This document shows positions 4,081 through 30,271 of a stretch of DNA of 32,000 nt, piece after piece. The stretch covers positions 990,001 through 1,022,000 of the forward strand of contig MGBH01000001.1 in assembly GCA_001790095.1 (NCBI GenBank), given 5' to 3'. This stretch comes from Candidatus Saccharimonadota bacterium. GTDB taxonomy: Bacteria; Patescibacteriota; Microgenomatia; UBA1406; GWC2-37-13. Under the pieces are notes generated by a model. The model had not been told where the DNA came from. It made no database searches and worked only from the letters and a program-made list of their open reading frames with translations. Position 1 is the stretch's first letter; each line of letters opens with the position of its first letter. The translations under genes and the position numbers were made by a program.

Positions 4081-4140
4081 GCAAGATAGTATACTATACT
4101 ATCTTATAGTATACAAGCTTATTATACTAATTACTCTTCC
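4081..4140 (-). promoter_or_regulatory. promoter/operator-like region upstream of the HExxH lipoprotein gene
   Basis: On the minus strand, TATACT (4093..4088) lies 7 nt before ATG 4080, and a further TATAAT lies upstream. The region consists of repeated tagtatac/tatact words, including the inverted repeat gatagta-tacta-tactatc (4085-4103). Confidence 0.3.
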
Positions 4141-5007: not shown

Positions 5008-5058
5008 ATAAATTCATGATATAGACAAAGCAGTGCTTTTACAAGATCTATCTCTGTT

Positions 5059-15200: not shown

Positions 15201-15868
15201 GCCCCAGCTAATGTATTCCAAGATATGGCAGCATTTGCTCCCCTTGTAGAACAGGAAACAACCACGTTGCTTGTACAGGGAAGTGGGGTTGGAGTGGGAG
15301 TGGATGTGGGGATGGGAGTAGATGTGGGGATGGGAGTGGATGTGGGGATGGGAGTAGATGTGGGGATGGGAGTAGAGCTGGGAGAAAAAACTGTAGGGAC
15401 GGGAGTAGAGCTGGGAGGAACTGTAGGAACTGGAGTATCTCCAGGCTCTTCAGTAGGACTCACACATGCATCACAACAACCAACTACCGAATTATCTCCC
15501 GATCCACCTATACATGGATAATAGGTACTATATTTAGTTGCACAATTACACAGTCCCCCTGGAACAGTTACTTCACAAACTGAAGAGCAAAGTATTGGAG
15601 AGTCACATCCATGAGTCACATTTGCACAATATCCAGTATCAACAGGCCCTATCCATTGACATGATTCGCAGCATATATCTCCAGGATGGTTCCAGCTATC
15701 ACCACTACAACTAGGTCCTCCTCCTACTCCACAATAACCCACTGGACAATCATAAGCAGCATGTAATAGTGTTGGTTTTATCACAAAAAAACTGAAAACA
15801 AATATGTTCACTATAATGAATAGCATTATTTGTTTATTGCTCTTGTTTTTAACACTTAAGATGTTCAT
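12293..15868 (-). CDS. large secreted/surface protein: Cys-rich N-terminal module, Pro/Thr tandem-repeat linkers, TSP1-like motif, unknown C-terminal domain
   Basis: 1191 aa. N-terminal anchor/signal 'IMLFIIVNIFVFSFFVI'. Dense Cys in residues ~40-135. (STPIPT)n and (TPTPTITPGGPTL)n repeats. 'SWGSWGSCSVACGTGNEERTC' at residues ~327-349. Confidence 0.6.
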   Translation of the reverse strand: MNILSVKNKSNKQIMLFIIVNIFVFSFFVIKPTLLHAAYDCPVGYCGVGGGPSCSGDSWNHPGDICCESCQWIGPVDTGYCANVTHGCDSPILCSSVCEVTVPGGLCNCATKYSTYYPCIGGSGDNSVVGCCDACVSPTEEPGDTPVPTVPPSSTPVPTVFSPSSTPIPTSTPIPTSTPIPTSTPIPTSTPTPTPLPCTSNVVVSCSTRGANAAISWNTLAGAAAYAVRLNKSPLGDWNSPAAGDQFIAPVAQPSIYVSVSPDTYYEQALQGIKSGESYPYSGCQTSWAGFTCTGQHVGCTGASCGWIPGYNGGVDTCTPAGTTRTASWGSWGSCSVACGTGNEERTCNPGAENNCACSCSSPSVACGGTDSRSCCIDSSPLQPVVSSVTLYTAAGCTQRYDVDWTFPNNNNGCSQGWGYVCGTRTNQFRLLINGVEVKTGILYTARTDNTISLSAWSGTAQICASNGAAETCSTVYNYNLIAPTCGVSGQSPASGCYNNIPALSASYDTCSDQIQFGVDTDTGFGSPWSCNSGWLASANPVSYASCSVTGTGTYYWGARGRSTAAPIKCTTPAIPAPSRALSIDQTAPTPPGGAAFVSIYPDPDCRENYFASYKWNTTTDGGCGGLNALPYQSEVSTESDYSPLASGWSNSWVNTTQQALQQSYPGGTTFYGRVRARDSFTNTSGWTTTIYTIPTPSPYPTINIQGKYIEDLGTSCSTSMNIDPDQLDLQVTVPPGVTSTCTKTPSNYSCNLIVDNQGGDCIPPCFDMTLSATYGDYGNVDWRQSNQCGGEYLEIITICLLSPTPSPSITPGGPTLTPTPTNAPTSTPTLTPTPVGPTSTPTPTITPGGPTLTPTPTITPGGPTLTPTPTITPGGPTLTPIPTVTPGGPTLTPIPTGEVSPTSTPIPTATPLPPTPTPFGGSITPTPIVPPGVVPTIPVFFSVPSSWLKMGNVSYDNLRSGRSSIIPNNMLKYTDSDTDDTLDKYLIVNNAGGILSAGNLRLGPNATQYSEPNWYNTSYIQLHSFTPTKYAEYMKSRKEYKTITQLADIVGDGIYYVGSDIDINDSSYFVNKKIVLVADQNRIGINIDLNSASVGNAAIAIVARDITISSTVTEVQAILIGNNVTTGNTEDLALKIKGGLVHQSGTPTFENGRQLQNLQRPSLFIAMDQRQYLDLLPYLSISMYDWKQIQ
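13188..13343 (-). repeat. 4 x 39-bp coding tandem repeat (TPTxTPGGPTLTP units)
   Basis: Units at 13188-13226, 13227-13265, 13266-13304 and 13305-13343. Units 3 and 4 are nearly identical. A partial further unit lies around 13408-13440. Confidence 0.85.
15296..15385 (-). repeat. about 4.5 x 18-bp coding tandem repeat (STPIPT units)
   Basis: gggagtRgatgtggggat repeated from 15296 (15296-15313, 15314-15331, 15332-15349, 15350-15367, then degenerate). Confidence 0.85.
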
Positions 15869-16712: not shown

Positions 16713-18002
16713 ATGGTTAGTTATCTTCCAAAAACCATCTTTGTTTTGTTTTTTACCCTTATTTTTTTACTTGAGGGCCTATCTTTTAAAAAAGGAAGAG
16801 AGATCTCATATGTACTTATTTTGTGTATGCCGTCTTTTTTATTTTACCTTCATTTTATGTTTAAAAATAGAATAAAATTAAGCCCGTTTGTGGGGTTTGT
16901 CAGCGCCCTTTATATTGTGTTTGTTTCGTTGTCTGCTCTTTCCTCTAAACAAATAAACGTCTCTATTGAGGGCGTATTACTTACAATTGCAGTCGTCTCA
17001 CTTTTTATTTATTCTTCATACCATAGAGACGAATTACAAAACATAGTCCTTGCTATGATAATGATTTTGTCATTTGTTTTTATCAGTCGTCATGTTTTGT
17101 ACCGATTAATACCAATTGATTTTGGAGGTCTACTTACTTTATCAGCATTTCAGTTTTTTTACTCTTTTTATCCAAACCATAATCAGCTTGGGACTTTTTT
17201 AACTCTTCCAATAATTACATGTTTTTTTTATCTCTTTTTTACTGCACCTTCTGTAAAGACACCAACAAGTGAGTCGTTTATCAAAAAGACAATGTCGTGG
17301 CTTCTTACAAAAAAACATATATTACTTATACTCTTTTACTTTCCTTTTTTTATTTTTTCTTATTCCCGCTCGAGTTACAATTCCGTATTTTGGACCTTTA
17401 TCCTGATGTTGTTCTATAATAGAAAAATTCTTTTTTCAAACAATTTTTTTTCTAAGAAAAAGATCGTTTTTATTATTTTGTTTGGAATCATTGTTTTGCT
17501 TATGTTTTTTATCACTGTAGAAGAAGTAAAAAGTATTCCGATTATATCTTCTCTTCATGTATGGTTACAAAAATATGCAGGTCTCGGTGGAAAAAGTTTT
17601 CTCTCAGGAAGATTCTTAATGTTCTCTGACATGTTACAAAGAGCTGAAGGAAAATACTTATTAGGGCTCGGCAAACCTCTTATATACTCTCAATCATATA
17701 CTCTCCATACAAATATTGGGTGGCCATCCCATAGTCTGATAGTCGACATCATCGCAAAACAGGGTTTGTTAAGTTTTTTTGCTTTTGTATTACTTCATGT
17801 AGTTATATTTGTCAAATCAGATAAAAGAAGTGTTTTTTTCTATCTCTGGATCAACCTTTTCATTAATTTTCTTACAAATTGGAGCTACACATTCTATTCT
17901 TTATATTGTATATACTTTATCCTACCTGGATTGATCCCTGTTATCCTTTCTTCATCTACTCAAAATAAACAATTTATTCGATCATTCTACCCAATTGACT
18001 AA
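16713..18002 (+). CDS. polytopic membrane protein, O-antigen ligase/polymerase (Wzy_C)-like
   Basis: 429 aa with many TM segments. 'FSYSRSSY' and 'SGRFLMFSDML..GLG..WPSHSLIVDIIAKQGLLSFFAFVLL' resemble the Wzy_C pattern (SR..., R..w, G-x-G, aHN.yl..l.e.G..G). TATAAT at 16701-16706 lies 6 nt before the ATG. Confidence 0.5.
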   Translation: MVSYLPKTIFVLFFTLIFLLEGLSFKKGREISYVLILCMPSFLFYLHFMFKNRIKLSPFVGFVSALYIVFVSLSALSSKQINVSIEGVLLTIAVVSLFIYSSYHRDELQNIVLAMIMILSFVFISRHVLYRLIPIDFGGLLTLSAFQFFYSFYPNHNQLGTFLTLPIITCFFYLFFTAPSVKTPTSESFIKKTMSWLLTKKHILLILFYFPFFIFSYSRSSYNSVFWTFILMLFYNRKILFSNNFFSKKKIVFIILFGIIVLLMFFITVEEVKSIPIISSLHVWLQKYAGLGGKSFLSGRFLMFSDMLQRAEGKYLLGLGKPLIYSQSYTLHTNIGWPSHSLIVDIIAKQGLLSFFAFVLLHVVIFVKSDKRSVFFYLWINLFINFLTNWSYTFYSLYCIYFILPGLIPVILSSSTQNKQFIRSFYPID

Positions 18003-20379
18003 ACAGCAATAGATTAGGATCCAAGACACCATTTTCTAGAAAGTTCATTAATGAGGCATGATAAGTTTCATCATTTAAGAAGGATGCCATAAAATTTTGA
18101 TTGAAAGTCCAGCTAGAATCCATACCTCTAAGACTGGTAAATTGTAGTAAGATCATTACGTCTCCTCGTTGAGCGTTTGAAGTAAAAGGATGTGATTCTT
18201 CAATAAAGCTTTTCCACCAATTAAAATCTTGTAACTGTTCAGGGGTGGGAGCAAAAGTTATACCCGCCTGACTCATAAATGTCGTTGTGGCTTCTATCGT
18301 CTGTCCATTGATATATATTGTGCCATCAGAAGCTCTCACAACAAGGTTTTGCGCAAAATTGACAACCTGTCCATCTATAACATAACTACCTTGAAATCTA
18401 ACCAGTGAGTCTCCTACTCTTTCCTCGTTTAAATATAGAGGTTCTGCCCCATATTCTGCTCCATGATAAAAAGCACGTATATTATACCAATCTGTTCTGT
18501 TGTCTCCGCTTTCTTGAGAGGAGATAAAGACATTTTCAAGAGAATCCATACCCTGCTCTTCTGCCATTTCTTGCACTCTTGTTTCCCATAGCTTTGCGTC
18601 AGCTTCTCTAACAACCGATAAATCTGATAGAGCTATCTGAGATGTATCTTTAGGAGTTTGCACCCAGACTGATACATCACGATTTTGATCTACGAAAAAG
18701 GGGTTACTAAGACCAATGGTTATGTCTGCTTCTCCTTCTTGAATAATAGTTACAGAAAGTCCATCTTCTGAGATACGTATTGATCCATCAAATACCGCGC
18801 CTCCGGCAGAGGAAGAAAAACTCGCAAGCTCTGTCCTATCCACACTGCCCCCTCTTTTGCTGATAAACCCTTCGCTTTGCAATATCCAGTTTCCGTCTCT
18901 TTGCAAGAGATACAGCTTATTGCCCGATGATCCGTCTTGAGATGATATAAATACCAAACCGCTTTCATAGGATCCTTCTGTTTGCACTTCCATCTGTGCA
19001 TGCAAAGCTCTGTTTGGATTTGCATCAACAGTAAAACTACCAACCCCTGCACTTTCTCTATAGATAGTTGACTCCCCGATAAGCTGCTGCTCAACGACCG
19101 ATGGCGCATCAATCTGAGGGACTCCATCCAAATTACCCGTATACTCACTTATCGGCATATATGCTGCATGCTGTACTCCATCATTTTCATAGGTTACTAC
19201 AACAAACGTGTCACTGATAACACCTGTTGCTTGTATGACTACTCCCTCTGCTGGTGAGTTAAGTGAGTTTGCAAAAGAGTCAGGCATGTCATATATACGT
19301 AGTGTACCTGTGCTTGTCATCGTTTCAGCTACTTCTCCTGACTCTTGTGTTGATTCTTGTGTCGGTTGCCCTGCTACTGGCTGATCTGCGGCAACGAGCA
19401 TGATATCAGGATTTATACGGGTGACATTGACCCAACTCACCAAAGCTCCATCATTGTTATAATATCCAAGTATGATTTGAGTAGTGGAAGGATCACCGTC
19501 TCCTAAATTGTCATAGGTTAAATAAGGATGAGTGCCTGGCGGCGCCTCAACCACAGCAAGCTCAAGTAGATCATAATCTGTGGCACTTAAGCCCTGAGGT
19601 AAAAGTGATTGAAATGGAAAAAATGTTTGTGCGCTTTCATCCCAAACTTGCGGTAGGATAAAATTATTTGTACCTCTTTCAAAAAAAGCCATTGACCATC
19701 CATCCTGAGGCACTGAACGGGTTATGTAATAATAGTGCTGATCAAACCAACTCTGGATCGCATCATCTGAGGCAGGATCAACCTGTTCGTTTGGGTGAGC
19801 GATATTCCAATCCTGTACCAGCTTATTGGTCATCAGCTGTAGATATTGTGTTGCCAGCTGTGCTCTGTCGGCAGAATATTCTGGGTCCGAGGAATCAAAA
19901 ATGTGCGGTCTATCAGGATCATAATACGTATCAGAACTATCTATGTGTGATCCCATCCTGCTCACATTTACCCCATCAGGAATCGGTGCAAAATTGCTTG
20001 AGCTTGCTGGATATGCATAAACAAGTTGGCTTTCTGGAGTATTTGTTACAGTTGAAGTAGCTGTAGATTCTTGGGTATTAGTAGCGTGTAAAGTAGGCGT
20101 AGCCCTTTCTTGAGTTGAAGTAGCTGACGCTGTAACTGTGGGAGTAGCAGTATCAGTAGCTGTAGATGTAGATGTAGCTGTAGCTGTCTCAGTTTCGGGT
20201 GCTCCTGGACTTCCGCATCCTGCCAACACCAATGATGCTGCAGCAGGCATTGCCACTCTTGCAATAGGAGATCTCATTATCTGTCCACCATAAACAGCTG
20301 GCTTTACACCAGCTCCGTTTACGTTACTAATTGCACTTTTATCAAGGTTTTTTGAATGACGCGTATGCAACTCACCCAT
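17974..20379 (-). CDS. surface lipoprotein with Thr/Ser/Ala-rich linker and shared C-terminal domain
   Basis: 801-aa track ORF. The likely true start is ATG 20277 (MRSPIARVAMPAAASLVLAGC, lipobox LAGC), preceded by GGTGGA. Low-complexity 'ETETATATSTSTATDTATPTVTASATSTQERATPT' follows the lipobox. The last ~178 aa are shared with the 15878..16687 product. Confidence 0.65.
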   Translation of the reverse strand: MGELHTRHSKNLDKSAISNVNGAGVKPAVYGGQIMRSPIARVAMPAAASLVLAGCGSPGAPETETATATSTSTATDTATPTVTASATSTQERATPTLHATNTQESTATSTVTNTPESQLVYAYPASSSNFAPIPDGVNVSRMGSHIDSSDTYYDPDRPHIFDSSDPEYSADRAQLATQYLQLMTNKLVQDWNIAHPNEQVDPASDDAIQSWFDQHYYYITRSVPQDGWSMAFFERGTNNFILPQVWDESAQTFFPFQSLLPQGLSATDYDLLELAVVEAPPGTHPYLTYDNLGDGDPSTTQIILGYYNNDGALVSWVNVTRINPDIMLVAADQPVAGQPTQESTQESGEVAETMTSTGTLRIYDMPDSFANSLNSPAEGVVIQATGVISDTFVVVTYENDGVQHAAYMPISEYTGNLDGVPQIDAPSVVEQQLIGESTIYRESAGVGSFTVDANPNRALHAQMEVQTEGSYESGLVFISSQDGSSGNKLYLLQRDGNWILQSEGFISKRGGSVDRTELASFSSSAGGAVFDGSIRISEDGLSVTIIQEGEADITIGLSNPFFVDQNRDVSVWVQTPKDTSQIALSDLSVVREADAKLWETRVQEMAEEQGMDSLENVFISSQESGDNRTDWYNIRAFYHGAEYGAEPLYLNEERVGDSLVRFQGSYVIDGQVVNFAQNLVVRASDGTIYINGQTIEATTTFMSQAGITFAPTPEQLQDFNWWKSFIEESHPFTSNAQRGDVMILLQFTSLRGMDSSWTFNQNFMASFLNDETYHASLMNFLENGVLDPNLLLFSQLGRMIE
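17998..18512. repeat. 515-bp direct repeat, copy 2 (partner 15899-16413)
   Basis: See copy 1. Confidence 0.9.
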
Positions 20380-20493: not shown

Positions 20494-23400
20494 CTACATC
20501 ACGTTCTGAAACTGCATTTTTTGTAACATCTCCATGACTCTTTCATTCCAAATAGCGCCTTGTTGTGCGGGGGTTAGACTGGCGACTTTTCCTTCAATAT
20601 CTTCCAGTCTGAAAAAATAATACGCTTCATCCAACACGTCCTGGAAATCACTCCACATTTCCCGCTTCATTTCATCAGCCATAGCTTCTTTCCCCGCTCT
20701 CATCCTGTCTGGTAGATTCGAGGCTGCCTCTGTCACAGCAAGAACACCTGAAGGTAAAACCTGAATCTTTCCTCGGACATGAGGCGGGAGCTGAACCTGA
20801 GCTGTTCCTAGCTTGGCTACTGCAAGTCCTAATGGAGTTCGACCCTCAGCCATATGGATGCCATGAGATTCGCGCACGCGAGCTGGTAAAAACTCATCAA
20901 GCCATGATCCTGCAAAGGTGATTTGAGGTAATTTTAGACCCGCTTTTATAAGACTTTCTGACCCTCCTTGTGGAGGAGCGGGTTCAATAAGAATTTGCCC
21001 CTTGTGCGGATCTATTGTCTTTTTAACCGAGCGTTCTGACAGCTCCGTCATAACTCTCACATATTGGTCCAACTTCCCCATAAATGCCATCTGCCACTCA
21101 CGAAGCCGTACATCTTTGATACCTATGTCAAGCAATGCCCTTTTTCTTTCTTCCTCTTGAGCACGAAGGTGAATGAGGTGCTCTTGAAACAGCTCTGTTT
21201 GCGCTTCATTGTCTCCCTTGATAGCCTGTTTCCAAAGATATTCAAATCGTTTGAGGCGTTTTTCGTGGAGCATATCTGCTCCATAGGCCCATTGTGTCAG
21301 GGGCGGTATAGATATCCTATCTATTAAATAAGCATTAGCAGGATCTCTTATATCTTTTTCTGATAATATCAAGTGTCGTAATCCTGGAATATCGCCCCTG
21401 CCTACACGCTGCAATTCTTGCCAAAGCTCGCGCTCAGTTGTGGCTCCTGACACAAATACCTCAGGCCCTCCCCGATCAATCACAGCCTCTTCCAGATTGT
21501 CCAATTGAAAATCCCGACGCGTCATTTGGCTCGTGATGACGATCGTGCCTGCGGTACAACCTGTTAAGGCCTTTTGAAGCGAACCACGCTCTTCAAGCTC
21601 TTCAGATGCAGTCACGACCCGAAGCCATGGTGGCCTCTCTATAGGAAGAGCTACTTGTGAGCTATCTCCTAGTTTTATTTGACGAAGCACCCGAAGTGCT
21701 CTCGGCCCACTAATTTCACGTTCTGCTTCTTCCATACTAACTACTCTCTGCTCCACTGTGTCTTCCTTACCCTTACCCTTACTAAGAAGTAAAAGGTGTT
21801 TTAAGATTTCTTCCTCCCTTGCCTCCATACTTTCTTGATTAATGAGTATTGATCCAGATTCATTTAACATTTTGATCGCTTGTTCTAAAAGATGTGCCTC
21901 CTGTGCATCGCGCATGATAAAAAGACCAACTCTTCCTTCTCTTTGGATACGTTTTGCCTCTTGAAAAAGCCTAAGCATTTTTCTTTCCTCAGATACAAAC
22001 ATCACATCAGCCAATCCTCCATCTAGACAGGTGGTTTGAAGGGTGTCGATTTTGTGTTTTGGCTGTCTTACCTGTTCATGCCTTTCTATTCTCAACACCT
22101 CAGCCTCATAAATATCCGCATAAGAGGATGCTACAGGGATAAGAGAACCTGAGGTAAATCTCAGCTTTTTATATTGTTTAAAGAGCTCAATAGGCGCTAC
22201 ACTATTGGTCGTACGCGACACCTTCATCTCATTAACAACTCGGTCGTAAAGGAGTTGAAACTGCGCATTGTCAATCCCCCTTTCTTTTTTTTCGTCCTGC
22301 TCCCATATGTTTTTTAACCGCAAAAAGACTTCATGTAAACCCTCAAGTTGTCTCTTTTGAAGAGGAAAGCCGCTCTCATCAAGGAGCGTTGCTTCTTTAC
22401 CGCCCAGATACTGCTTCTGCTCCTCTGATGCAAAAACGGTTTCAAGGGCACATCTGATCATGTCTGCGTCCTGCTCAACTATCACGTGTCTTGTTTGTGT
22501 ACCTCCACTTTGCGGGTCGGTTGAAAACTTAAAATATGATTGATTAATCTTGCTTAATACATCCTGAAGAATAGCTGAGGCTCTGTTATATGCTCTTTCT
22601 GATAGTTTTATGTGATCTCCTGCTTTAAAATAGTCCCTACCCTCACCTTCTTCAAAAAGATCCTTATATTCATATAGAGCATCCCAAAAACTAATAAGTA
22701 TTTCTTGTGTAATCTCTTGTCTTAAATCAGAAGGCATTGTCTTTCTTTCGAAACCCTTTATTTCTTGCATGGTTCTATCTCTTAAAGAGGAGGGTTTTCG
22801 TTTTTTTCTAGATTTTCTTATTTCTTGCGCAAGCCTATTTCGTTCCTCAACAGGCATTATGTCTTGTTCTCTTTGAACCTCTCTTATTCCCATCCATTTA
22901 TCAATATATTCCCATGCTTTTGCTCCCTGGATCGTCTCACTTTGGATCCATGTCTCATGGGCACGATCAAGCATCTCATCATCTGCTTCCTGCACAAGCG
23001 CTATTCTCCCCTGTTTGCTGTAAAAACCCGGGTCAATGGCTGTCACAGTTTTACCTGGTTGATAGTATTGAGACGCATGATCAAGATAAGTAAAACCGAC
23101 AGCATCAGTGGTTGCATATAGTATGGTGCTGTCCCAAACTTCCTGATGAGCTTTCTTGCCTTTTTGGGGGACTAGTTTACCGTTTTTATATATATACTCC
23201 AACCTTGTCCCCACAGGATCTCCTCCCCTCTCATTTTCTTCAACAGATAGATCTGTAGCCACACCTACTCTTATCCCGAGTTTTTTTGAATAAAAATCTC
23301 CTATGTTTTCTGCATGCTCCAAAGCTTTTGCATAAGATTGTTCAAGGATATGAACTTTTTCTCCCTGAAGGGCAAACATTGCTGCGATAAGCGCATTGGC

Positions 23401-23919
23401 TTCTGTTTTTCCCTCTCCCGTATCAAGCTGGATACCCCTGTTATCTGTCTCAAGTTTGCCGAATATATACTCACCCTTATTCAAAAGCATCTGCGTCATA
23501 TAACAAAGCTGGTTGTCGCGAAACACAAACTTCTTTCCCCTTTCAGCGGCATGCTGCTCATACAAAGCAGCCATATAGGCAGTTGTATCTTCAGCCCATT
23601 GGAGCTCTTTTTCTCCCCCTTTTGGAATACTTTTCCATCCTTCCCTTAATCTTTCCGTCACTTTTTGTCGTTTTTCTTGTTTTATCGCGGTTTTTTTATA
23701 TTGACTACGTAATTCTTTTATGGTTGGAAGAGAGTAAGTATAAAATTCATCCTGCATTTTGCCTGACCTGTCAATTGAGGCGAGTGTGCCAAACCACCCT
23801 TCTGCAGTTCTTTTTTCTTGCCAAGAAAAAAAACCTTTTGTTTGAAAAGGGTCATAGACCTTGGAGCGTTTTCTTTGTGGGGATGGATCTCCTTGTAGTC
23901 CTGTCTCTACTACTTGCAT
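20494..23919 (-). CDS. highly diverged SecA-family (SecA-like / accessory-SecA-like) protein
   Basis: 1141 aa, colinear with SecA (consensus recalled from memory). The pairs below give this protein first and SecA second. 'LDTGEGKTEANALIAAMFALQGEKVHIL' versus MRTGEGKTL..YLNAL.GKGVHVV. 'ILYATTDAVGFTYLDH' versus ITYGTNNEFGFDYLRDN. 'ALVQEADDEMLDRAHETWIQS' versus [20 protein letters not shown]. 'LLDESGFPLQKRQLEGLHEVFLRLKN' versus IVDEFTGR.M.GRR.S.GLHQAIEAKE. 'TSQMTRRDFQL' versus TNMAGRGTDI. 'GRGDIPGLRHLILSEKD' versus GRQGDPGSSRFYLSLED. Several catalytic-motif residues are substituted. There is an extra ~130-aa N-terminal extension. Confidence 0.7.
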   Translation of the reverse strand: MQVVETGLQGDPSPQRKRSKVYDPFQTKGFFSWQEKRTAEGWFGTLASIDRSGKMQDEFYTYSLPTIKELRSQYKKTAIKQEKRQKVTERLREGWKSIPKGGEKELQWAEDTTAYMAALYEQHAAERGKKFVFRDNQLCYMTQMLLNKGEYIFGKLETDNRGIQLDTGEGKTEANALIAAMFALQGEKVHILEQSYAKALEHAENIGDFYSKKLGIRVGVATDLSVEENERGGDPVGTRLEYIYKNGKLVPQKGKKAHQEVWDSTILYATTDAVGFTYLDHASQYYQPGKTVTAIDPGFYSKQGRIALVQEADDEMLDRAHETWIQSETIQGAKAWEYIDKWMGIREVQREQDIMPVEERNRLAQEIRKSRKKRKPSSLRDRTMQEIKGFERKTMPSDLRQEITQEILISFWDALYEYKDLFEEGEGRDYFKAGDHIKLSERAYNRASAILQDVLSKINQSYFKFSTDPQSGGTQTRHVIVEQDADMIRCALETVFASEEQKQYLGGKEATLLDESGFPLQKRQLEGLHEVFLRLKNIWEQDEKKERGIDNAQFQLLYDRVVNEMKVSRTTNSVAPIELFKQYKKLRFTSGSLIPVASSYADIYEAEVLRIERHEQVRQPKHKIDTLQTTCLDGGLADVMFVSEERKMLRLFQEAKRIQREGRVGLFIMRDAQEAHLLEQAIKMLNESGSILINQESMEAREEEILKHLLLLSKGKGKEDTVEQRVVSMEEAEREISGPRALRVLRQIKLGDSSQVALPIERPPWLRVVTASEELEERGSLQKALTGCTAGTIVITSQMTRRDFQLDNLEEAVIDRGGPEVFVSGATTERELWQELQRVGRGDIPGLRHLILSEKDIRDPANAYLIDRISIPPLTQWAYGADMLHEKRLKRFEYLWKQAIKGDNEAQTELFQEHLIHLRAQEEERKRALLDIGIKDVRLREWQMAFMGKLDQYVRVMTELSERSVKKTIDPHKGQILIEPAPPQGGSESLIKAGLKLPQITFAGSWLDEFLPARVRESHGIHMAEGRTPLGLAVAKLGTAQVQLPPHVRGKIQVLPSGVLAVTEAASNLPDRMRAGKEAMADEMKREMWSDFQDVLDEAYYFFRLEDIEGKVASLTPAQQGAIWNERVMEMLQKMQFQNVM

Positions 23920-25051
23920 AGTTATTATTGTATACCATAGAGCCTTTATGAGCCAGGAGATTTTGATAATGATATAACATGTGTTTTGCGTGGTAGTTTT
24001 TTATCCGTCTCAAAGATTGATCCGCATAATAATCGCGGATATGTCTGTCTGAAATAATAGTTGACATGTGTTTGGCCAAGCTCTTACTGTTTTGCATGGG
24101 AAACAACAAACCATATTTATTTTTTCCCAGGATCTCCCCTGGACCATAAGGAGTATCTGAACTTATGACTGGCAAACCGTAGGACATCGCCTCAAGTATG
24201 GCATAAGGGTACCCATCCCAGAGTGAAGAATAGACAAAACAGTCAGCCTTTTTTAGCAGTCGTCCTACATCATGCTGCCAACCATAAACAACTATGCGTG
24301 ATGAGATGTTTAGCTCGTTGATTTCTTTAAGTATCTTGTTTTTGTCTTCTCCATCTCCTACAAGATATAAATATGCTCTGGAGTACTTTTTTGTTATGGT
24401 AGAAAACGCCTTTAAAATCGTTGCTATGTCTTTTTGAGGGGAGAAGCGTGAAATGGTGATAAATATAAAGTTCCTTGAAGGTGATTTTTTTCTCGTAGGT
24501 ATTCTTTTTGTACCGTTATATATAACTTTAATCTCATGTTTTGGATAAAAGTACTTCTCCAAACCGCTTTTAACCCCCTGGGAAACCGCTATATAGATAT
24601 CGCTCTTGTCGTGAAATATAAGTCTCCCGGCCACCTTTAATAAAGGTATTAATACAGAATTCGATTTTGTCTTAAAAACCATCTCTACATTATTATGAAA
24701 AGTAAAAATGCTCTGTTGAGGAAACCAATTTATAAGCTTAACCAATCTCCATAATAAGCCTGCATGAAAATCAACACAGAGTACTTTATCCGGCTTCTTC
24801 TTTTTAACAAGCGCACTTATTAATACTATTTCTTTACATAGCAAAAAGAGGTTGGAGGGGGTCAGTGCATAGAAGGACGGAAGACTCTTTTTTGAAATAT
24901 AGGTGATATTGTGCTTTATTTTGCTTTCAACAGGTGACGGAGAAGGCTCCAGACATACAGTATGAAACTCCATGCTTTTTATGTTTGTAAGCTCTAAGAT
25001 AAACGTTCCAGTACCGCCACTTACACTTTTTGTAATAGTAAGGACCATCAT
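23852..25051 (-). CDS. GT4-family (glycosyl transferases group 1) glycosyltransferase
   Basis: 399 aa. N-terminal 'SVSGGTGTFILEL'. C-terminal-half motif 'YPYAILEAMSYGLPVISSDTPYGPGEIL' is typical of GT-B/GT4 enzymes. The 3' end overlaps the SecA-like ORF start by 68 nt. Confidence 0.8.
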   Translation of the reverse strand: MMVLTITKSVSGGTGTFILELTNIKSMEFHTVCLEPSPSPVESKIKHNITYISKKSLPSFYALTPSNLFLLCKEIVLISALVKKKKPDKVLCVDFHAGLLWRLVKLINWFPQQSIFTFHNNVEMVFKTKSNSVLIPLLKVAGRLIFHDKSDIYIAVSQGVKSGLEKYFYPKHEIKVIYNGTKRIPTRKKSPSRNFIFITISRFSPQKDIATILKAFSTITKKYSRAYLYLVGDGEDKNKILKEINELNISSRIVVYGWQHDVGRLLKKADCFVYSSLWDGYPYAILEAMSYGLPVISSDTPYGPGEILGKNKYGLLFPMQNSKSLAKHMSTIISDRHIRDYYADQSLRRIKNYHAKHMLYHYQNLLAHKGSMVYNNNYASSRDRTTRRSIPTKKTLQGL

Positions 25052-25086: not shown

Positions 25087-26352
25087 ATGCATATAATATT
25101 TCTACTTTTAATCCTTGTTCTTAAACTTCCCTCATTTTACTTTCTGCCTTCCTCATCTTCCCTATTTACAAGCCACTCCCTAGTAAAAATAGGGGTCGTG
25201 CTTATTGCTATGTATATGTTGTACGATGAAAAAATTCGAAGAGCGGCAGGGCGAGCAGTTTTGTCAAACATGCCAATTATCCTTTTCTTGTTTTCGCAAT
25301 CAATCTCAGTCATATGTGCGAAAGATGTTGGATTGTTTTGGAAAAGTTACCATAATTTACTTATCAGCATCCTTATCTTTTTTAAGGCTGCGCTGTTGTT
25401 TGGAAAAAGAAGAAATCTTATTGTCCGTTTTTTATTTTTAGTTGCCATTATAACGACAGGGCTTGAAGTGGCTCTATATCTTGTCCCCAAAGATCTATTC
25501 AGACTCTTGCCTTTTCAGAGCGAAATCCTTGATGCCTTTATCGTTAATCTTGACCGCAACAGATTTTCATTTGAGTCTCATAATGAATTTTTACTTCTTG
25601 TTTTGTTGTTTGTTTCTTTTACTTCCTTGTCCAAAAAAAGGAGATTCGTTGGCCTGATCATAAGCGTAGTATTGATCGCTTTATCGTTTTATTCATCAAA
25701 TCGCACTCGACTCATTTCGCTTATGGGTGCGTTGATATTTTTTATAGTTTCTTTTTTCCATCTTCGTTTCATAAATCATAAGGGAAGATCTGCTAATATT
25801 GTCTTTACTCTTATAGCTGCTTTTGTCTTTGTATTTATTCTATTTCCTCCAAGAGCAATGTTTGAAAGAATTTTTGCTCCCTCTGAGTCCTCTGATTATG
25901 AAACGATTATTTTCCGTATCGATTCGATCAAACACTCTGCTTTACTTCTTCAATCTTCTCCCTTGCTGGGGGTTGGTCTTGGAAACTACCCCCTATATCC
26001 AGCAATACATAGATATGTCCCACCATATGAATTTGGCAAATCAGCTCAAAACAGATATGACAAAGCTGTTCCAGCCTCACCACACAATATATTTGCTCAA
26101 GTTGGTGCTGAGACAGGAATTGTTGGTTTGGGATCGTTTGTTTTCCTCATTTTCTGGTTTATCAGAAAAGACGTAGAGATGTGGCGAAAAGGTAAAGACA
26201 TAAAGATGGTGCTTTCGTTTTGTTCGTGGATTATATTCTTAACTTTTCTTTTCAACCCATCTCATACACTGTATATATCTGGATGGTTTTGGTTTTTAAG
26301 AGGAGTTATTTATTCTAAAAATCATTCAATCCCCTTGATCACAAAATCATAG
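25087..26352 (+). CDS. O-antigen ligase family (Wzy_C domain) membrane protein; PglL/WaaL-like
   Basis: 421 aa, polytopic. 'YSSNRTRLISLMGA', 'GVGLGNY' and 'SPHNIFAQVGAETGIVGLGSFVFLIFWF' match the Wzy_C signature well. TGTATAAT lies at 25063-25070 upstream. Confidence 0.7.
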   Translation: MHIIFLLLILVLKLPSFYFLPSSSSLFTSHSLVKIGVVLIAMYMLYDEKIRRAAGRAVLSNMPIILFLFSQSISVICAKDVGLFWKSYHNLLISILIFFKAALLFGKRRNLIVRFLFLVAIITTGLEVALYLVPKDLFRLLPFQSEILDAFIVNLDRNRFSFESHNEFLLLVLLFVSFTSLSKKRRFVGLIISVVLIALSFYSSNRTRLISLMGALIFFIVSFFHLRFINHKGRSANIVFTLIAAFVFVFILFPPRAMFERIFAPSESSDYETIIFRIDSIKHSALLLQSSPLLGVGLGNYPLYPAIHRYVPPYEFGKSAQNRYDKAVPASPHNIFAQVGAETGIVGLGSFVFLIFWFIRKDVEMWRKGKDIKMVLSFCSWIIFLTFLFNPSHTLYISGWFWFLRGVIYSKNHSIPLITKS

Positions 26353-27203
26353 AAAGAGTAGTGTGGGGTAGTGATAGTCAGGTATTTTCCCGGAATCAGT
26401 GTCTGCTCTTGGGCAAAGATAAGATTGCCGTCTTTTTGCTCCACCATAACCTTGGCTTTTACGGTGATGCTTATTCTTTGGGATGAAACAGAGGGGTCAA
26501 TAAAACGACCCTGCTCGACAGCAAAAGCCTGCGTATCGTCCCCCACGGCTTTTTCAGTAATTTTAAATACCGCATCTGTACCATCAAAATAGGTATCTCC
26601 CACACGTATGCTTTCATACTCCCACGGATGGGCATATTTTTTTTCTAAAGTAACTGTTTTGTGTTCGTAAACCTCACGAAAAGGAACCGTATCTATCTGC
26701 GTAACCGTGCCGCTTATAAAAGATGATGAAAGATCCAACTCAATCGGCATCCCCACACTTATGGGAGATCTTTTAAAACTATAGCTTCCGGATCTTCCCA
26801 TGCTTGTCACTTTGAGACGGGTTGTGATATATACATCAAACTGGTTGGTGATTCCGTTTATTGATCCCCATGGATAATAACGCACCGACAAAATCTCTGC
26901 AACTGGTTTGCCAATTATGTCTTTCTCGAGAACATTATTTTTTATAGCTTTGACAAACCAGACAGGAGCTTTTGCAGTTGAAGCCCACCACATACCCTGT
27001 CCAAGCTTGACTCTTGCATATATATAGGTTGGCTTTGTCACAAACAGTTTATATAGAGAAACTAATCCTACAGACAGTATGCAAAGGATAAAGATCCCAA
27101 CGATATAGTTTTTGTAAAATAAATGAAGAAGTTTCTTAATAGCTCTTTTGTTCCTTTTTGTCTTCATATGCGTATAATATAGCAAATGAAACACAAATCT
27201 CAA
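26322..27203 (-). CDS. membrane-anchored hypothetical protein
   Basis: 293-aa track ORF. The likely start is ATG 27167 (MKTKRNKRAIKK...). Single TM 'IVGIFILCILSVGLVSLYKLF', followed by a beta-rich extracytoplasmic region. No family recognised with confidence. Confidence 0.5.
   Translation of the reverse strand: MRFVFHLLYYTHMKTKRNKRAIKKLLHLFYKNYIVGIFILCILSVGLVSLYKLFVTKPTYIYARVKLGQGMWWASTAKAPVWFVKAIKNNVLEKDIIGKPVAEILSVRYYPWGSINGITNQFDVYITTRLKVTSMGRSGSYSFKRSPISVGMPIELDLSSSFISGTVTQIDTVPFREVYEHKTVTLEKKYAHPWEYESIRVGDTYFDGTDAVFKITEKAVGDDTQAFAVEQGRFIDPSVSSQRISITVKAKVMVEQKDGNLIFAQEQTLIPGKYLTITTPHYSFYDFVIKGIE
27173..27179. promoter_or_regulatory. overlapping divergent -10 boxes (TATAAT on +, TATTAT on -) in an 18-bp divergent gap
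   Basis: Plus strand: TATAAT at 27173-27178, 7 nt before ATG 27186. Minus strand: TATTAT at 27179..27174, 6 nt before ATG 27167. Confidence 0.35.
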
Positions 27204-28013
27204 ACCCTATTGCCTCAATCTGAAGTGATACTTTTTATTGCTGGGTTTTATATCAGGATTATTTTTGAACCATTTGAATTCCTATACGGCCAACAACAGT
27301 TTATGAAAGACTTTCTCACTATGTATGCAGGATTCATCATCAAAGGACCCATACCAAAAACTGATTATTTACTTCGAATTATTCATGCAAAAAACTTGAT
27401 TACATTATTCCGTAAGAAGGAAAACCTAGAGTTTATTTTATATGTAAAAAATATGAAAGAAAATCGCTGTACTACTTTTCATCATATAAGCTCCTCTCAA
27501 CTTCAAACACTTTTTAGAAAAATCCTTCTTGCTCTTTTGGCAAAACATGACGGGTTCCTTTTACATACGTCTGCGGTAAAGATTAATCGCTTAGCATATC
27601 TTTTTTTGGGAAAGCCTTATGCTGGCAAATCAACCTCAATGAAGCTCCTAAAAAGTAGTTATCCGCCTCTTGCTGATGATACGGGATTTATAAGGAAAAT
27701 AAACAATGATTATCTTTTCTTTCAAACTCCTTTTGTTGAAAAAGAGCATTGGATAAAAAAAGGATGGCGAGGGCTTGCTTTAGGGAAACTGTGTTTCTTG
27801 CGCAAATCCAAATCCTTTCATCTGAAAAAGATTGCTGATAAACATGATGTTTTACATCTGTTAATGCGGCAATTTTTTACTGAACAAGAGCATGCAAAAA
27901 AACAGACAGACTACCTTTTTGACTTTGTAAAAGGGTTTGATGAGTTTTATATACTTTCTTTTGCGAAAGATAAAAGAAAATTTATTGAATTTATGACCAC
28001 TCATGCGATATAA
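27186..28013 (+). CDS. HPr-kinase-C-terminal-domain-like P-loop protein (HprK-related kinase)
   Basis: 275 aa. 'FLLHTSAVKINRLAYLFLGKPYAGKSTSMKLLKSSYPPLADDTGFI' parallels the HprK/P core (hG..v...g.gvLi.G.SG.GKSe.al.L...g..LvaDD.v.i). The stop overlaps the PqqD-like start by 11 nt. Confidence 0.6.
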   Translation: MKHKSQTLLPQSEVILFIAGFYIRIIFEPFEFLYGQQQFMKDFLTMYAGFIIKGPIPKTDYLLRIIHAKNLITLFRKKENLEFILYVKNMKENRCTTFHHISSSQLQTLFRKILLALLAKHDGFLLHTSAVKINRLAYLFLGKPYAGKSTSMKLLKSSYPPLADDTGFIRKINNDYLFFQTPFVEKEHWIKKGWRGLALGKLCFLRKSKSFHLKKIADKHDVLHLLMRQFFTEQEHAKKQTDYLFDFVKGFDEFYILSFAKDKRKFIEFMTTHAI

Positions 28014-28266
28014 AATAGAAAAGGGTTTAATTGCACAACGCACAACAAAAAGGATGACTGTCTTTGACTCAAAAAATTTAACTTTTTTTACCTTCAATGA
28101 AACCGCTCTTTATATTTTTAATTGCCTTAAAAGGGGGTTTGATGACAAAGAATTGGTAAAACGAATGATGAAACGCTATCAGATAGATAAAATACAGGCT
28201 GAGAAGGATTTAGAAGAATTTATACAGCTCTTGAAAAAGGAAAAAATCGTCTCACTAAAGAAATAA
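28003..28266 (+). CDS. PqqD-family protein (RiPP recognition element, RRE)
   Basis: 87 aa. 'TVFDSKNLTFFTFNETALYIFNCLKRGFDDKELVKRMMKRYQIDKIQAEKDLEEFIQLLKKEKIV' fits the PqqD pattern (..LN.ta..iw.l.dG..t..el...l...y.v....a..D...fl..L...gli). Confidence 0.8.
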   Translation: MRYKIEKGLIAQRTTKRMTVFDSKNLTFFTFNETALYIFNCLKRGFDDKELVKRMMKRYQIDKIQAEKDLEEFIQLLKKEKIVSLKK

Positions 28267-29485
28267 GAATGACCCGTATATTTTGGAATATCACCCAATA
28301 TGCAGCATAAATAACTTGCGGATCCGCAAAGATTTGCACCTTTTTGCTCCAATGGTTTGGTGATAGGTGATACAGATACATAAACCTTTCTATACCAGCT
28401 TTGATTCGTGTTTGATCATCAAATACTACTGTGTGCAAAATCTTTTTATTAAAATATATTTTGTACTGCTTTTCTATAGGAATTCCTTTTATGAGAGAAC
28501 TTAAAAAAGGGGCCGTTTCGGGAAAATATTTTTTAAGTAGAAGAAAAGTAGCATATATATAGTTTTGCATTCTCAGTGTTTTAATTTTTTCTTGTATTGA
28601 ATGAACGTATCGCTCGCTTTTTTTACTTCTAACTATTTTACGTAATAACTCTAGTCGAAAAACTCCTCTATAGTTATGGTGAAAAAAGTGAAGTGCAAGA
28701 TAGATAATAAGATTTTCGGTAGAAAGGATGGGAATCGAATACTCCTGAATTATTATGGTCCTTTTTTCATTGAGACACATATCAGTAAATACGTCTATGA
28801 GGCTCTGTGGATATAGATTTTCAGATCGACTAAGTTGCGTCATCATAAACACTGCCTCTCTATGAAGATCAAATACTACGAACATTCCGTTGATGATTTT
28901 ATAATATGCGTTTTCTACTGTTTTACCTTGGAGTTTTTTCTGGGTTTGAGAGAGCGCTGTGTCTGATTTTTTATATCCTGTACTTAACAGGACCTCTTCT
29001 GCTTTTAAAAAATCTTCTTTTTTTACCAAAAAATCACAGTCCATATATATCCTTTGAGGGTGGGTTTTTTCAAAGTGTAGATGAAGAGGTAGCCCTTTAA
29101 GGATTACAAACTCTATTTTTTCTTTTTTGAATTTTTCCGCAAGGATCACTATTTGCTGGAAATAGAGAGTTGATTGTACAAGATAAAGGTCTTGAATTTG
29201 GACAATCTCTCCGTTTCTTTTTATGCTTTTAACTTTTGCAACCACTTGATCTGCTCTTATCTTTCCATCTGACTTGAGATTGTTGTCGCCTTTGGTAATA
29301 AGGTATTTCTTATGTCTGTCTTTGTATATAACCCTATGGGCAAAAAGAGTTGCTTGTTTTCTTGTGATTAGTATGTCGTTTATTTTGATATTGATTTTTT
29401 CCCGAGGGTCATAGAAGATAGTATCTTTAGTTTTAATAAGAGGATACATGCTCATACCTAACGAGCGTATGGATGATAGGGTCAT
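28220..29485 (-). CDS. fusion protein: SipW/Sec11-type (S26B) signal-peptidase-like domain + 'uncharacterised nucleotidyltransferase' (NTP_transf_5-like) domain
   Basis: 421 aa. N-terminal ~100 aa carry 'GMSMYPLIKTKD', 'AHRVIYKD' and 'ITKGDNNLKSDG', the S26B Ser/His signature order, with no preceding TM segment. The remainder has 'VILKGLPLHLHF..PQRIYMDCDFLV', typical of the nucleotidyltransferase family (KG...R..DiDlLV). Confidence 0.6.
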   Translation of the reverse strand: MTLSSIRSLGMSMYPLIKTKDTIFYDPREKINIKINDILITRKQATLFAHRVIYKDRHKKYLITKGDNNLKSDGKIRADQVVAKVKSIKRNGEIVQIQDLYLVQSTLYFQQIVILAEKFKKEKIEFVILKGLPLHLHFEKTHPQRIYMDCDFLVKKEDFLKAEEVLLSTGYKKSDTALSQTQKKLQGKTVENAYYKIINGMFVVFDLHREAVFMMTQLSRSENLYPQSLIDVFTDMCLNEKRTIIIQEYSIPILSTENLIIYLALHFFHHNYRGVFRLELLRKIVRSKKSERYVHSIQEKIKTLRMQNYIYATFLLLKKYFPETAPFLSSLIKGIPIEKQYKIYFNKKILHTVVFDDQTRIKAGIERFMYLYHLSPNHWSKKVQIFADPQVIYAAYWVIFQNIRVILISLVRRFFPFSRAV

Positions 29486-29501: not shown

Positions 29502-29678
29502 CTACTCTGAACATAATGATCCAAAACAATAAGTCCCCGAACAACAAGATGTTGTACCCCCCCCACAGTTACACGCAGCAAGTAGTTCTTCTGAATTTAA
29601 AGAAAACCTTCTCGTAAGAAATAAAGTGGAAGCAGATTTCTTTTTTATTATTGGTTTATAATATCTATGTTTTTTCAT
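29502..29678 (-). CDS. unlisted 58-aa ORF: candidate RiPP precursor (basic leader + 6-Cys Gly/Ser/Thr-rich core)
   Basis: Manual translation: MKKHRYYKPIIKKKSASTLFLTRRFSLNSEELLAACNCGGGTTSCCSGTYCFGSLCSE*. ATG at 29678..29676 overlaps the TGA stop of the upstream gene (ATGA overlap). Stop TAG at 29504..29502, 16 nt before the peptidase/NTase fusion gene. Below the apparent ~60-aa floor of the ORF track. Confidence 0.55.
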   Translation of the reverse strand: MKKHRYYKPIIKKKSASTLFLTRRFSLNSEELLAACNCGGGTTSCCSGTYCFGSLCSE

Positions 29679-30271
29679 CGATCAACAGTAATTATTATCT
29701 TTACAATAGCCTGCGTAATGGTAGGATCCTCAAACGGGTTCTCCTCAGTAGTAATGGTAATATGATCATCTTCTTTAATGGTAGAAGCATCAATTTGCTC
29801 TCCCTTCCCGTTTTGGACAGTGAATTTACTATCTTTTGCATAATAATACCGTGTTGAGGTTTTGCCATCTTCATACACTAAATTAAAAGCAATCTCATAC
29901 GCCTTCCCATTCTTTGTCTTTCCTTGAACAGATAGATCTTTCGCCCGACCCTTTTCCTCAAATAAAAGACGAGCTGTTCGCCCTGTTGAGGCGTTGTACT
30001 TTGAGAGCATAGTAATATATTTTGGATGTATTGCGCCGAGTTTTTTGTTTGGAAAAGGAGTCAAATAAGTTTGACACACATAGCTGTTTGGGTCTTTGTT
30101 TAGATATCCTTTTGTTTCTTCAGTTTTTGCAGGTAACGTTATGGTCTTTGTAGAGGTATAATAATACCATCCCACCTCACCGAGTGTAATAGTAAGAAGT
30201 ATAAAGAAGACGACAAGAAGGATTTTGTTTACGTTTCCCATATGTTTTAAGTGTAGGGCCGAGAGGGGCAA
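29675..30271 (-). CDS. membrane-anchored hypothetical protein
   Basis: 198-aa track ORF that starts at TTG. The likely start is ATG 30241 (MGNVNKILLVVFFILLTITL...). Single N-terminal TM. No family recognised. Confidence 0.5.
   Translation of the reverse strand: MPLSALHLKHMGNVNKILLVVFFILLTITLGEVGWYYYTSTKTITLPAKTEETKGYLNKDPNSYVCQTYLTPFPNKKLGAIHPKYITMLSKYNASTGRTARLLFEEKGRAKDLSVQGKTKNGKAYEIAFNLVYEDGKTSTRYYYAKDSKFTVQNGKGEQIDASTIKEDDHITITTEENPFEDPTITQAIVKIIITVDR

Follow-up and report, generated by a model that had tools for sequence, protein, structure and literature searches.

We analyzed a stretch of 32,000 nucleotides of DNA from Candidatus Saccharimonadota bacterium (assembly GCA_001790095.1, contig MGBH01000001.1, positions 990,001 to 1,022,000 of the forward strand), which we call the window. 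The subject of the analysis was a gene at positions 28220-29485 that encodes a peptidase of the SipW/Sec11 type (MEROPS S26B) fused to a nucleotidyltransferase, and the genes that surround it. We computed the folds of the fusion protein, the conservation of its catalytic residues and of the fusion itself, and the absence of a membrane anchor ahead of the active site. Further, we computed the co-localisation of the gene with those for a recognition element (RRE) of peptides that are made on ribosomes and altered post-translationally (RiPPs), for a kinase and for a precursor peptide, and the homology to the proteins LppS, LppK and LppN of the linear polyphosphorylated peptide (LPP) pathway of Bacillota. 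The central features are listed below with their positions in the window.

28220-29485, minus strand: fusion gene (S26B peptidase and PF14907 nucleotidyltransferase), one open frame of 421 aa with no internal stop.
29198-29485, minus strand: S26B (SipW/Sec11/LppS-like) peptidase domain, residues 1-96, recognised by TIGR02228, the SEC11 profile, identity to LppS and fold matches.
28220-29197 (stop codon included), minus strand: connecting helix, PF14907 core and helical bundle, recognised by PF14907 and fold matches.
29502-29678, minus strand: precursor peptide of 58 aa directly 5' of the fusion gene, recognised by a leader hidden Markov model (HMM; E 6e-5).
28003-28266, plus strand: PqqD-family RRE of 87 aa (PF05402, E 3.4e-11).
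27186-28013, plus strand: 275-aa P-loop kinase that resembles HprK, ScmC/LppK type (33% identity to LppK; weak match to TIGR00679).

A hypothetical protein encoded on a 1.2-Mb contig of Candidatus Roizmanbacteria RIFOXYC2_FULL_38_9 had 100% identity to the fusion protein. An earlier note, made from the sequence of the window, had described an SMYP/HRV/KGDNN..D module near the N-terminus, joined to a domain of the nucleotidyltransferase family, and had proposed domain HMMs and structure prediction as a check. Both folds were recovered in this way. The peptidase motifs were located at S12-M13-Y14-P15 (within GMSMYP), H50-R51-V52, K65-G66-D67-N68-N69 and D73. Residues 9-89 matched TIGR02228, the NCBIfam model of archaeal and ER-type signal peptidase I (E 1.7e-12; 47.5 bits, slightly short of the curated cut-off of 51.85), and the alignment spanned positions 37-122 of the 158 in the model, leaving its membrane-anchor part unmatched. 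A profile built from 98 homologues was compared with the Protein Data Bank (PDB) and matched human SEC11C and SEC11A (7p2q, 7p2p), with GSMEP, HRV and KGDNN..D aligned. The second domain, at residues 103-321, was recognised by Pfam PF14907, NTP_transf_5 (E 2.2e-20, 73.8 bits, cut-off 31.2), and the peptidase domain stands in place of approximately the first 50 positions of that profile. A Pfam ALO match to residues 141-264 (E 4e-5) was rejected as spurious, since it overlaps the far stronger PF14907 match and is without support from fold or context.

The AlphaFold2 model of the fusion protein (mean pLDDT 93.3, pTM 0.92) comprised a beta-rich domain (residues 4-95), a long helix (97-121), an alpha/beta core (126-254) and a helical bundle (256-414). 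The core, at about 126-254, is that of the nucleotidyltransferase and carries KGLP at 130-133, D149-x-D151 and D206/H208. Comparison of the model with the PDB by Foldseek gave two groups of matches, the nucleotidyltransferases (5uvd, TM1012, LnuA, ANT(2'')-Ia) and the S26/S24 peptidases (SipA, SEC11A, SpsB, LexA, UmuD').

We considered whether the fusion could be a frameshift or an assembly artefact, a possibility that the earlier note had raised against itself, and ruled this out. The gene is a single open frame. A word-indexed search returned 415 relatives, nearly all 385-465 aa long and covered to 90-99%, and an exhaustive search gave 204 clusters (50% identity) at E<=1e-30; 80 genomic loci were fetched. 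Since full-length homologues number hundreds in Microgenomates and their catalytic residues are conserved, the fusion is not an artefact. Wherever the titles of the records were informative, the hosts were all Microgenomates (Roizman-, Gottesman-, Levyi- and Beckwithbacteria). Many of the records for loci L003-L082 bear the title 'uncultured Gammaproteobacteria' (TPA metagenome-assembled genomes, among them those of binchicken) and one the title 'Omnitrophota', despite a gene order typical of the candidate phyla radiation (CPR); they seem to have been labelled by default or after mis-binning, and we regard such titles as unreliable.

Conservation of single residues was counted over 320 homologues with both domains, except for Ser12, which was counted over the 277 in which this position was aligned. 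The results were as follows.

Ser12: kept in 267/277.
His50: kept in 307/320.
Asp67: kept in 313/320.
Asp73: kept in 308/320.
Asp149: kept in 318/320.
Asp151: kept in 319/320.
Asp206: kept in 313/320.

In the PF14907 domain G131, D149, D151 and D206 were about 98-100% conserved, and the catalytic residues of both domains taken together 96-99%. The Ser/His dyad of the earlier note is conserved in both its members, and the catalytic set is Ser/His/Asp rather than the dyad alone. We observed that 43 of the 320 homologues are annotated from the Met of SMxP, so that the catalytic Ser is deleted from the called protein. This looks like a systematic start-codon error across the fusion family. The NCBI record MGBN01000001.1 starts the fusion protein at Met11.

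We then assessed the neighbourhood of the fusion gene. For this purpose we used the loci with at least 3 kb on each side of the fusion gene (n = 43). The genes found near it were as follows.

PqqD: 36/43 (62/82 of all loci).
Kinase: 29/43 (46/82 of all loci).
Recognisable precursor: 25/43.
Wzy_C protein: 29/43.
YcaO: 15/43.
SagB-like dehydrogenase: 14/43.
Glycosyltransferase GT4: 11/43.
ABC exporter (MsbA-like): 7/43.

In the window, the PqqD gene and the fusion gene converge, and 47 nt at the 3' end of the latter are shared by both. The PqqD protein matched the lasso-type PqqD model NF033530 with E 4.9e-11, below the cut-off of the model. Its Asn32 and Asp69 correspond to N33 and D70 of LppB, the RRE of the LPP pathway, and were conserved in 62/64 and 63/64 family sequences, respectively. 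The kinase has the Walker A motif GKPYAGKST and the motif LADD. The homologues of this kinase carry PF27840 (ScmC), and the HPr(Ser) kinase model TIGR00679 was matched weakly by the kinase of the window.

The ATG of the 58-aa precursor overlaps the stop codon of the preceding open reading frame (ORF) in the sequence ATGA, and the precursor has no called gene in MGBN01000001.1. Its predicted leader, residues 1-34, contains the RRE-binding motif YxxPx[ILV] as Y6-Y-K-P9-I-I11 and ends in the junction E31-L-L-A34. The predicted core, residues 35-58, is ACNCGGGTTSCCSGTYCFGSLCSE and has 6 Cys. The whole peptide used as a phmmer query found one weak relative, and a leader-only HMM was required to see the family. 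With this HMM we obtained 51 matches (E<=0.01) from 42 sources, and a control on reversed DNA gave 0. The leader motif of the family, found in small ORFs adjoining fusion or kinase genes, is approximately KK-x-Y-x-K-P-x-I-x-x-K-K-I-x-L-N-x-F. A junction of the form hydrophobic-Leu-Ala was present 22-42 residues past the Tyr (bulk 26-37) in 41 of the 47 unique peptides, a count partly shaped by the search pattern used; one extra match at 164 residues was a stray inside a Hint domain. The shift in composition from leader to core does not depend on the search pattern: cores contained 17% Gly, 14% Cys and 11% Ser, and leaders 0.35% Cys. Core lengths varied from only 3-5 aa to about 130 aa. A kinase or fusion gene was no more than about 120 nt away from the precursor in 36/49 cases.

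The pathway with which we compared these genes was described in soil bacilli by Popov et al. (Nat Commun 2026, PMC13381572). The LPP pathway comprises LppA, LppB, LppK, LppS, LppN and LppD, and LPPs are stated there to be restricted to Bacillota, with no mention of a fusion, a membrane segment or a CPR organism. The same study (PMC13381572) provides the functions that matter here. LppS is a stand-alone SipW-like, RRE-dependent leader peptidase that needs LppB, and its variants S29A, H68A and D93A are inactive. LppK puts several phosphates on Ser3 of the core. There is a crystal structure of LppB with LppA, and N33 and D70 of LppB fix the Pro and the Tyr of the leader. LppS touches the complex of RRE and leader with its alpha1 helix. 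The leaders of LPP precursors follow the consensus YxxPxVLxHQxIxFETxxS; Thr stands at P1 of LppA, and the Phe at P3 sits in a hydrophobic cleft. LPP clusters are often found inside capsule loci.

Protein sequences of the LPP pathway were taken from the supplements of PMC13381572, that of LppN being derived by optical character recognition (OCR). Over 95 aa, the N-terminal domain of the fusion protein and LppS shared 36% identity (E 3e-15; probability by hhalign 97.9%), and S12, H50 and D73 aligned with S29, H68 and D93 of LppS. The kinase of the window was 33% identical to LppK over 110 aa that include the P-loop (E 6e-12). LppN matched PF14907 with E 7.7e-26. Both systems have a SipW-type peptidase with Ser/His/Asp that lacks an N-terminal anchor, and alongside it a PqqD RRE as a discrete protein, a kinase resembling HprK and a nucleotidyltransferase of PF14907. 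Both also share YxxPx[VLI] at the N-terminus of the precursor, a variable C-terminus, the lack of a lasso cyclase and surroundings of polysaccharide genes.

The two systems differ in several respects. Peptidase and nucleotidyltransferase are one polypeptide in the window and separate genes in Bacillota, and the hosts are Microgenomates (CPR) in one case and Bacillota in the other. The leaders of Microgenomates are longer, with a second block KKIxLNxF, a linker of 10-20 residues and a hydrophobic-Leu-Ala junction replacing FET, and their cores are mostly rich in Cys, Gly and Ser. An MsbA-like exporter (LppD) is usually absent from Microgenomates loci, whereas YcaO and a SagB-like dehydrogenase are present in about a third of them. 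Several kinase paralogues can also share one such locus, and a separate precursor then accompanies each of them.

We conclude that the fusion protein is probably the equivalent of LppS and LppN, that is, a leader peptidase and a tailoring nucleotidyltransferase, in an LPP-type RiPP pathway of a Microgenomates (Candidatus Roizmanbacteria) genome; we put the probability of this reading at about 0.8. The earlier note had not recognised the arrangement from characterised RiPP pathways. This needs correction, as the same four functions, encoded by separate genes, define the LPP family (PMC13381572). The type of pathway is already known, and what is new is the fusion of LppS with LppN, the host phylum, the junction motif with the Cys-rich cores, and the links to YcaO and to glycan genes. 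The claim that the peptidase acts on the adjacent peptide and not in general secretion fared better. The homology to LppS, the presence of PqqD in 36/43 and of the kinase in 29/43 loci, and the proximity of precursors in 36/49 cases point to this peptide as the most likely substrate.

We propose a pathway of four steps, in which the enzymatic roles are assigned by homology. First, the PqqD protein would bind the precursor through Y6-x-x-P9-x-I11, as suggested by the LppB-LppA structure and by the conserved Asn32 and Asp69. Second, the HprK/LppK-like kinase would phosphorylate a hydroxyl residue near the junction of leader and core, by analogy with LppK and core Ser3. Third, the nucleotidyltransferase domain (D149/D151/D206) would add a group to this phosphate, probably a sugar or a sugar-phosphate; this step is modelled on the PsmN-dependent hexosylation of phosphoserine and on the context of glycan genes. 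Fourth, the S26B domain (Ser12/His50/Asp73) would cut the leader off the modified precursor presented by the RRE, as the LppS mutants suggest. The bond cut would most likely be the one after Ala34 of the hydrophobic-Leu-Ala junction, judging from the family motif and the preference of S26 peptidases. We place the cut there because it gives a small residue (Ala) at P1 and a hydrophobic one (Leu/Val/Tyr/Phe) at P3, while a cut before the Ala would leave Leu at P1. In this way the fusion would tie tailoring to the removal of the leader within a single enzyme. That the fusion of peptidase and nucleotidyltransferase is conserved argues for one complex in which both work on a common intermediate.

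Several observations weigh against this conclusion. The fusion protein of the window is without the N-terminal helix of approximately 10 residues that is found in most homologues and in LppS, and an in-frame TAA stands immediately 5' of its ATG. Comparison of the family profile with the single OCR-derived LppN sequence by hhalign gave no match; the link to LppN therefore rests on shared membership of PF14907. LppN itself was inactive in the published heterologous system, where a partner from outside is suspected (PMC13381572). The PqqD protein matched LppB weakly by BLASTP (E 0.034). The precursor has the YxxPx[ILV] part of the LPP consensus (Y6, P9, I11), with a longer leader and no FET. The residue after the Ala-Ala of its junction is Cys36 and not Ser, and the nearest hydroxyls are T42, T43 and S44. 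The influence of the search pattern on the count of junctions belongs here too. No ABC/MsbA-like exporter was found among the ORFs of the window. Finally, the fusion gene was without a nearby PqqD or kinase gene in 5/43 well-flanked loci; L001 and L002, in which no PqqD or kinase gene was called alongside, follow what the survey of the 43 loci identifies as a minority pattern.

Further, we looked at hydropathy. The earlier note had stated that the protein lacks an N-terminal membrane anchor, and the scan agreed with this: no hydrophobic segment was found ahead of the catalytic Ser in the fusion protein or in 98 homologues (maximal Kyte-Doolittle mean over 19 residues 1.03). LppS, which matched TIGR02228 with 62.8 bits from model position 38, is likewise without an N-terminal anchor. 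The same note had called the domain apparently soluble, a point that calls for qualification. A C-terminal hydrophobic or amphipathic helix is present at approximately residues 389-414, with a mean over 19 residues of 1.55 in the fusion protein and a family median of about 1.7. We found stand-alone S26-like, LppS-like proteins of 142-146 aa at L055 10067-10495, L064 4153-4593 and L074 3006-3443 (all plus strand). These paralogues keep the catalytic motifs, have no N-terminal anchor and possess hydrophobic C-terminal tails; such copies sometimes share a locus with a fused copy. The C-terminal tail of LppS is hydrophobic in our own reading of its sequence (Supplementary Data 1 of PMC13381572), and LppS is reported to be poorly soluble (PMC13381572). 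One homologue is joined to a membrane phosphoglycosyl transferase. For these reasons, solubility is not established. The fusion protein probably acts at the cytoplasmic face of the membrane.

The homologue just mentioned (P0147, 589 aa) joins three modules, namely the S26-like domain, PF14907 and a polyprenyl-phosphate phosphoglycosyl transferase of the Bac_transf type (PF02397, E 9.4e-52). In it the PF14907 nucleotidyltransferase is physically tied to glycan-initiating chemistry and to the membrane. Along with the glycan genes of the neighbourhood, this lends support, short of proof, to a part for the PF14907 domain in transferring a sugar or sugar-phosphate at the membrane. Glycan-related genes also lie beside the cluster in the window, and the neighbouring features were as follows.

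25087-26352, plus strand: Wzy_C (O-antigen-ligase-like) membrane protein (PF04932, E 1.3e-14).
23852-25051, minus strand: GT4 glycosyltransferase (PF00534, E 1.1e-34), part of a polysaccharide-type neighbourhood.
26322-27203, minus strand: 293-aa protein with an N-terminal transmembrane segment by hydropathy, with a sub-threshold DUF4330 match only.
29675-30271, minus strand: 198-aa protein with an N-terminal transmembrane segment by Kyte-Doolittle hydropathy, directly 5' of the precursor and overlapping its start.

The Wzy_C protein of the window gave a weak match to the O-linking oligosaccharyltransferase TfpM and is a possible accessory component that handles glycans. Homologues of the 293-aa protein (E down to 6e-80) were present in 32 loci, often divergent from or adjoining the PqqD or kinase gene. 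The 198-aa protein had weak homologues in 7 loci, and a similar family of transmembrane proteins of about 185 aa was found in 27 loci. Other parts of the window contained large ORFs without a Pfam match, of 1191 aa (12293-15868) and 801 aa (17974-20379), and an ORF of 1141 aa (20494-23919) with a stretched, SecA_DEAD-like match only. Adjacent ORFs of 406 aa and 288 aa at 2860-5007 had no Pfam match. All of these are encoded on the minus strand.

The explanation that competes best with ours is that the genes form a pathway for a cell-surface glycoconjugate and not for a diffusible product. The phosphopeptide would serve as a primer or acceptor, would be phosphoglycosylated by the nucleotidyltransferase domain and the glycan enzymes beside it (GT4, Wzy_C/O-oligosaccharyltransferase-like, phosphoglycosyl transferase), and would be released from its leader by the peptidase at the membrane. 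Wzy_C was found in 29/43 and GT4 in 11/43 loci, the window has both beside the cluster, and the Wzy_C protein shows the weak similarity to TfpM. The triple fusion with a phosphoglycosyl transferase, the position of LPP clusters of Bacillota in capsule loci and the outside partners proposed for LppN (PMC13381572) agree with this, as does the finding that PsmN is needed for a hexose on phosphoserine (PMC6993621). However, the neighbourhood may reflect synteny of envelope genes in Microgenomates (PBP2, the 293-aa protein, Wzy_C) and not function, and glycosylation is without direct evidence. We regard this explanation as rather unlikely, and it refines the LPP-type reading rather than excluding it. 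In its fullest form it would be a peptide-primed phosphoglycosylation route in CPR bacteria at the inner face of the membrane, with a phosphate from the kinase, a phosphodiester-linked sugar from the nucleotidyltransferase, extension or transfer of the glycan by Wzy_C and release by the peptidase; this picture, too, is a speculative one. In that case, episymbiotic bacteria would carry the Cys-rich phosphoglycopeptides on their surface or secrete them. If this were true, the fusion would reveal the missing partner chemistry of LppN.

It is improbable, in our view, that the peptidase-like domain is inert and serves the nucleotidyltransferase as a peptide-binding or chaperone module, as SipA does in pilus assembly, while another protease cuts the leader. 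SipA (4n31) was among the best fold matches, the protein of the window is missing the N-terminal helix of most homologues, and the TIGR02228 score was slightly under the cut-off. Against this, Ser12, His50, Asp67 and Asp73 were conserved in 96-98% of the 320 homologues, the catalytic residues align with LppS residues whose mutation kills cleavage, and no other protease gene was found to be conserved in the neighbourhood of the related loci.

We also compared the locus with lasso-peptide clusters of the paeninodin and pseudomycoidin type (PadeK/PsmK, PsmN). PsmK phosphorylates a lasso peptide, and PsmN, in which the DxD pair is essential, is needed for a hexose on that phosphate (PMC6993621). 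The likeness consists of an HprK-like kinase, a DxD protein resembling NTP transferases (PsmN was likened without a Pfam scan of it) and an RRE-bound [Y/W]xxP leader. These clusters differ by a macrolactam cyclase C, a Cys protease B2, a separate PsmN and the lack of an S26 peptidase. A degenerate or split lasso pathway, with the cyclase elsewhere in the genome and a phosphorylated lasso peptide as the product, is very unlikely. The PqqD protein is of the B1 type, with lasso-type models as its best NCBIfam matches (NF033530, below cut-off), the leader has [Y/W]xxPx[LVI], the pair of kinase and PF14907 is typical of paeninodin-type clusters, and an Asn-synthase gene was present in 6 related loci. 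However, no Asn-synthase-like cyclase and no transglutaminase-like B2 protease was found among the ORFs of the 32-kb window. The Asn synthase of L036, the one locus checked, has an intact glutaminase domain that starts with MCGIVG, as is typical of ordinary AsnB. Thr is missing at leader position -2, and a lasso topology does not suit cores that reach about 130 aa or have just 3-5 aa.

There remains the housekeeping role, in which a SipW/Sec11-type signal peptidase fused to an unrelated enzyme would still process secretory preproteins. The best family matches were signal peptidase I models and SEC11, and many homologues carry the label 'signal peptidase I' at JGI. The fold is indeed that of SipW, Sec11 and archaeal signal peptidase I, with the same SMxP, HR and GDNN..D motifs and Ser/His(/Asp). 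Classical S26B enzymes, in contrast, are held by an N-terminal membrane anchor and cleave Sec signal peptides at the outer side of the membrane. An N-terminal anchor was absent in all homologues scanned, and for this reason the active site should not lie on that side, where type I signal peptidases have theirs. Further, the domain of the window is fused to a presumably cytoplasmic enzyme, it is tightly linked to the RRE, the kinase and leader-bearing precursors, and its nearest characterised relative, LppS, is a dedicated RiPP peptidase. We find this role hardly credible. The same holds for an S24-type self-cleaving module (LexA/UmuD-like) that would regulate the nucleotidyltransferase through autoproteolysis, since the matches to LexA and UmuD' and a sub-threshold Pfam Peptidase_S24 match stand against a conserved general base that is the His of HRV, followed by the S26B signature GDNN..D and not part of a Ser-Lys dyad, against the lack of any conserved Ala-Gly or Cys-Gly self-cleavage site seen, and against a far stronger sequence similarity to LppS and SEC11.

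Two further types of cluster were compared. A TOMM (linear azol(in)e) cluster was rejected for the window because no YcaO and no SagB-type dehydrogenase was found in it; radical SAM enzymes were also absent from its ORFs. The SynChlorMet cassette (ScmC, ScmD) resembles the locus in that the kinase homologues carry PF27840, and the best NCBIfam match of LppB was ScmD (TIGR04248, below cut-off). This cassette has radical SAM/SPASM partners and is not known to include an S26 peptidase or a component of PF14907; nothing on it was found in a search of the literature.

The loci of the LPP-type pathway of Microgenomates varied in their precursors. We observed several kinase paralogues in one locus, each adjoining its own divergent precursor, in L025 (precursors at 2508-2708 and 4858-5064), L034 (3165-3374 and 4916-5110), L026 and L030. 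This suggests that kinase and precursor co-diversify, while a single fusion protein and a single PqqD are shared. In L063 (2707-3297, minus strand) a YxKPxI leader and an LLA junction were followed by a Hint/intein-like domain (PF14890 E 9.5e-13, PT-HINT 1.9e-9), and further peptides with a leader and such a domain were found in L005 (1728-2327, plus strand) and L048 (1-467, minus strand). These fusions would place a short Cys-containing segment just N-terminal of a self-cleaving or thioester-forming module. In L038 (11359-11832, plus strand) a peptide with the leader continued into a Peptidase_S74 domain, which is a self-cleaving intramolecular chaperone (PF13884, E 1.9e-15). Long Gly/Cys/Ser cores similar to microcin B17 were present in loci with YcaO, namely L033 (4242-4991), L041 (1338-1850) and L062 (4825-5049), all on the plus strand. 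Such loci include YcaO at L062 1149-2480 and a SagB-like, nitroreductase-type dehydrogenase at L033 2879-3703, a combination suggesting that azoles are formed on peptides of this leader family. Near the module, a PP-loop ATPase resembling QueC (PF06508, E 2.6e-10) recurred, at L074 1451-2791 (plus strand) and in 5 other loci; it has a weak, sub-threshold PqqD-like tail at its C-terminus (E 0.0077).

In summary, these results carry the LPP family beyond Bacillota, to which it was said in 2026 to be confined, into hundreds of genomes of Microgenomates (CPR), organisms whose genomes are very small and in which few natural-product pathways have been recognised. They also reveal an annotation problem, in that 43/320 homologue calls drop the catalytic Ser. 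The precursor family, unannotated in the one source record checked, offers many candidate substrates, with Cys-rich cores, Gly/Cys/Ser cores, cores of 3-5 residues and fusions to Hint and S74 domains. The fusions, including the one with a phosphoglycosyl transferase, provide a lead on chemistry of the LppN/PsmN type, which could be transfer of a sugar or sugar-phosphate onto the phosphate of a peptide with the help of glycan machinery.

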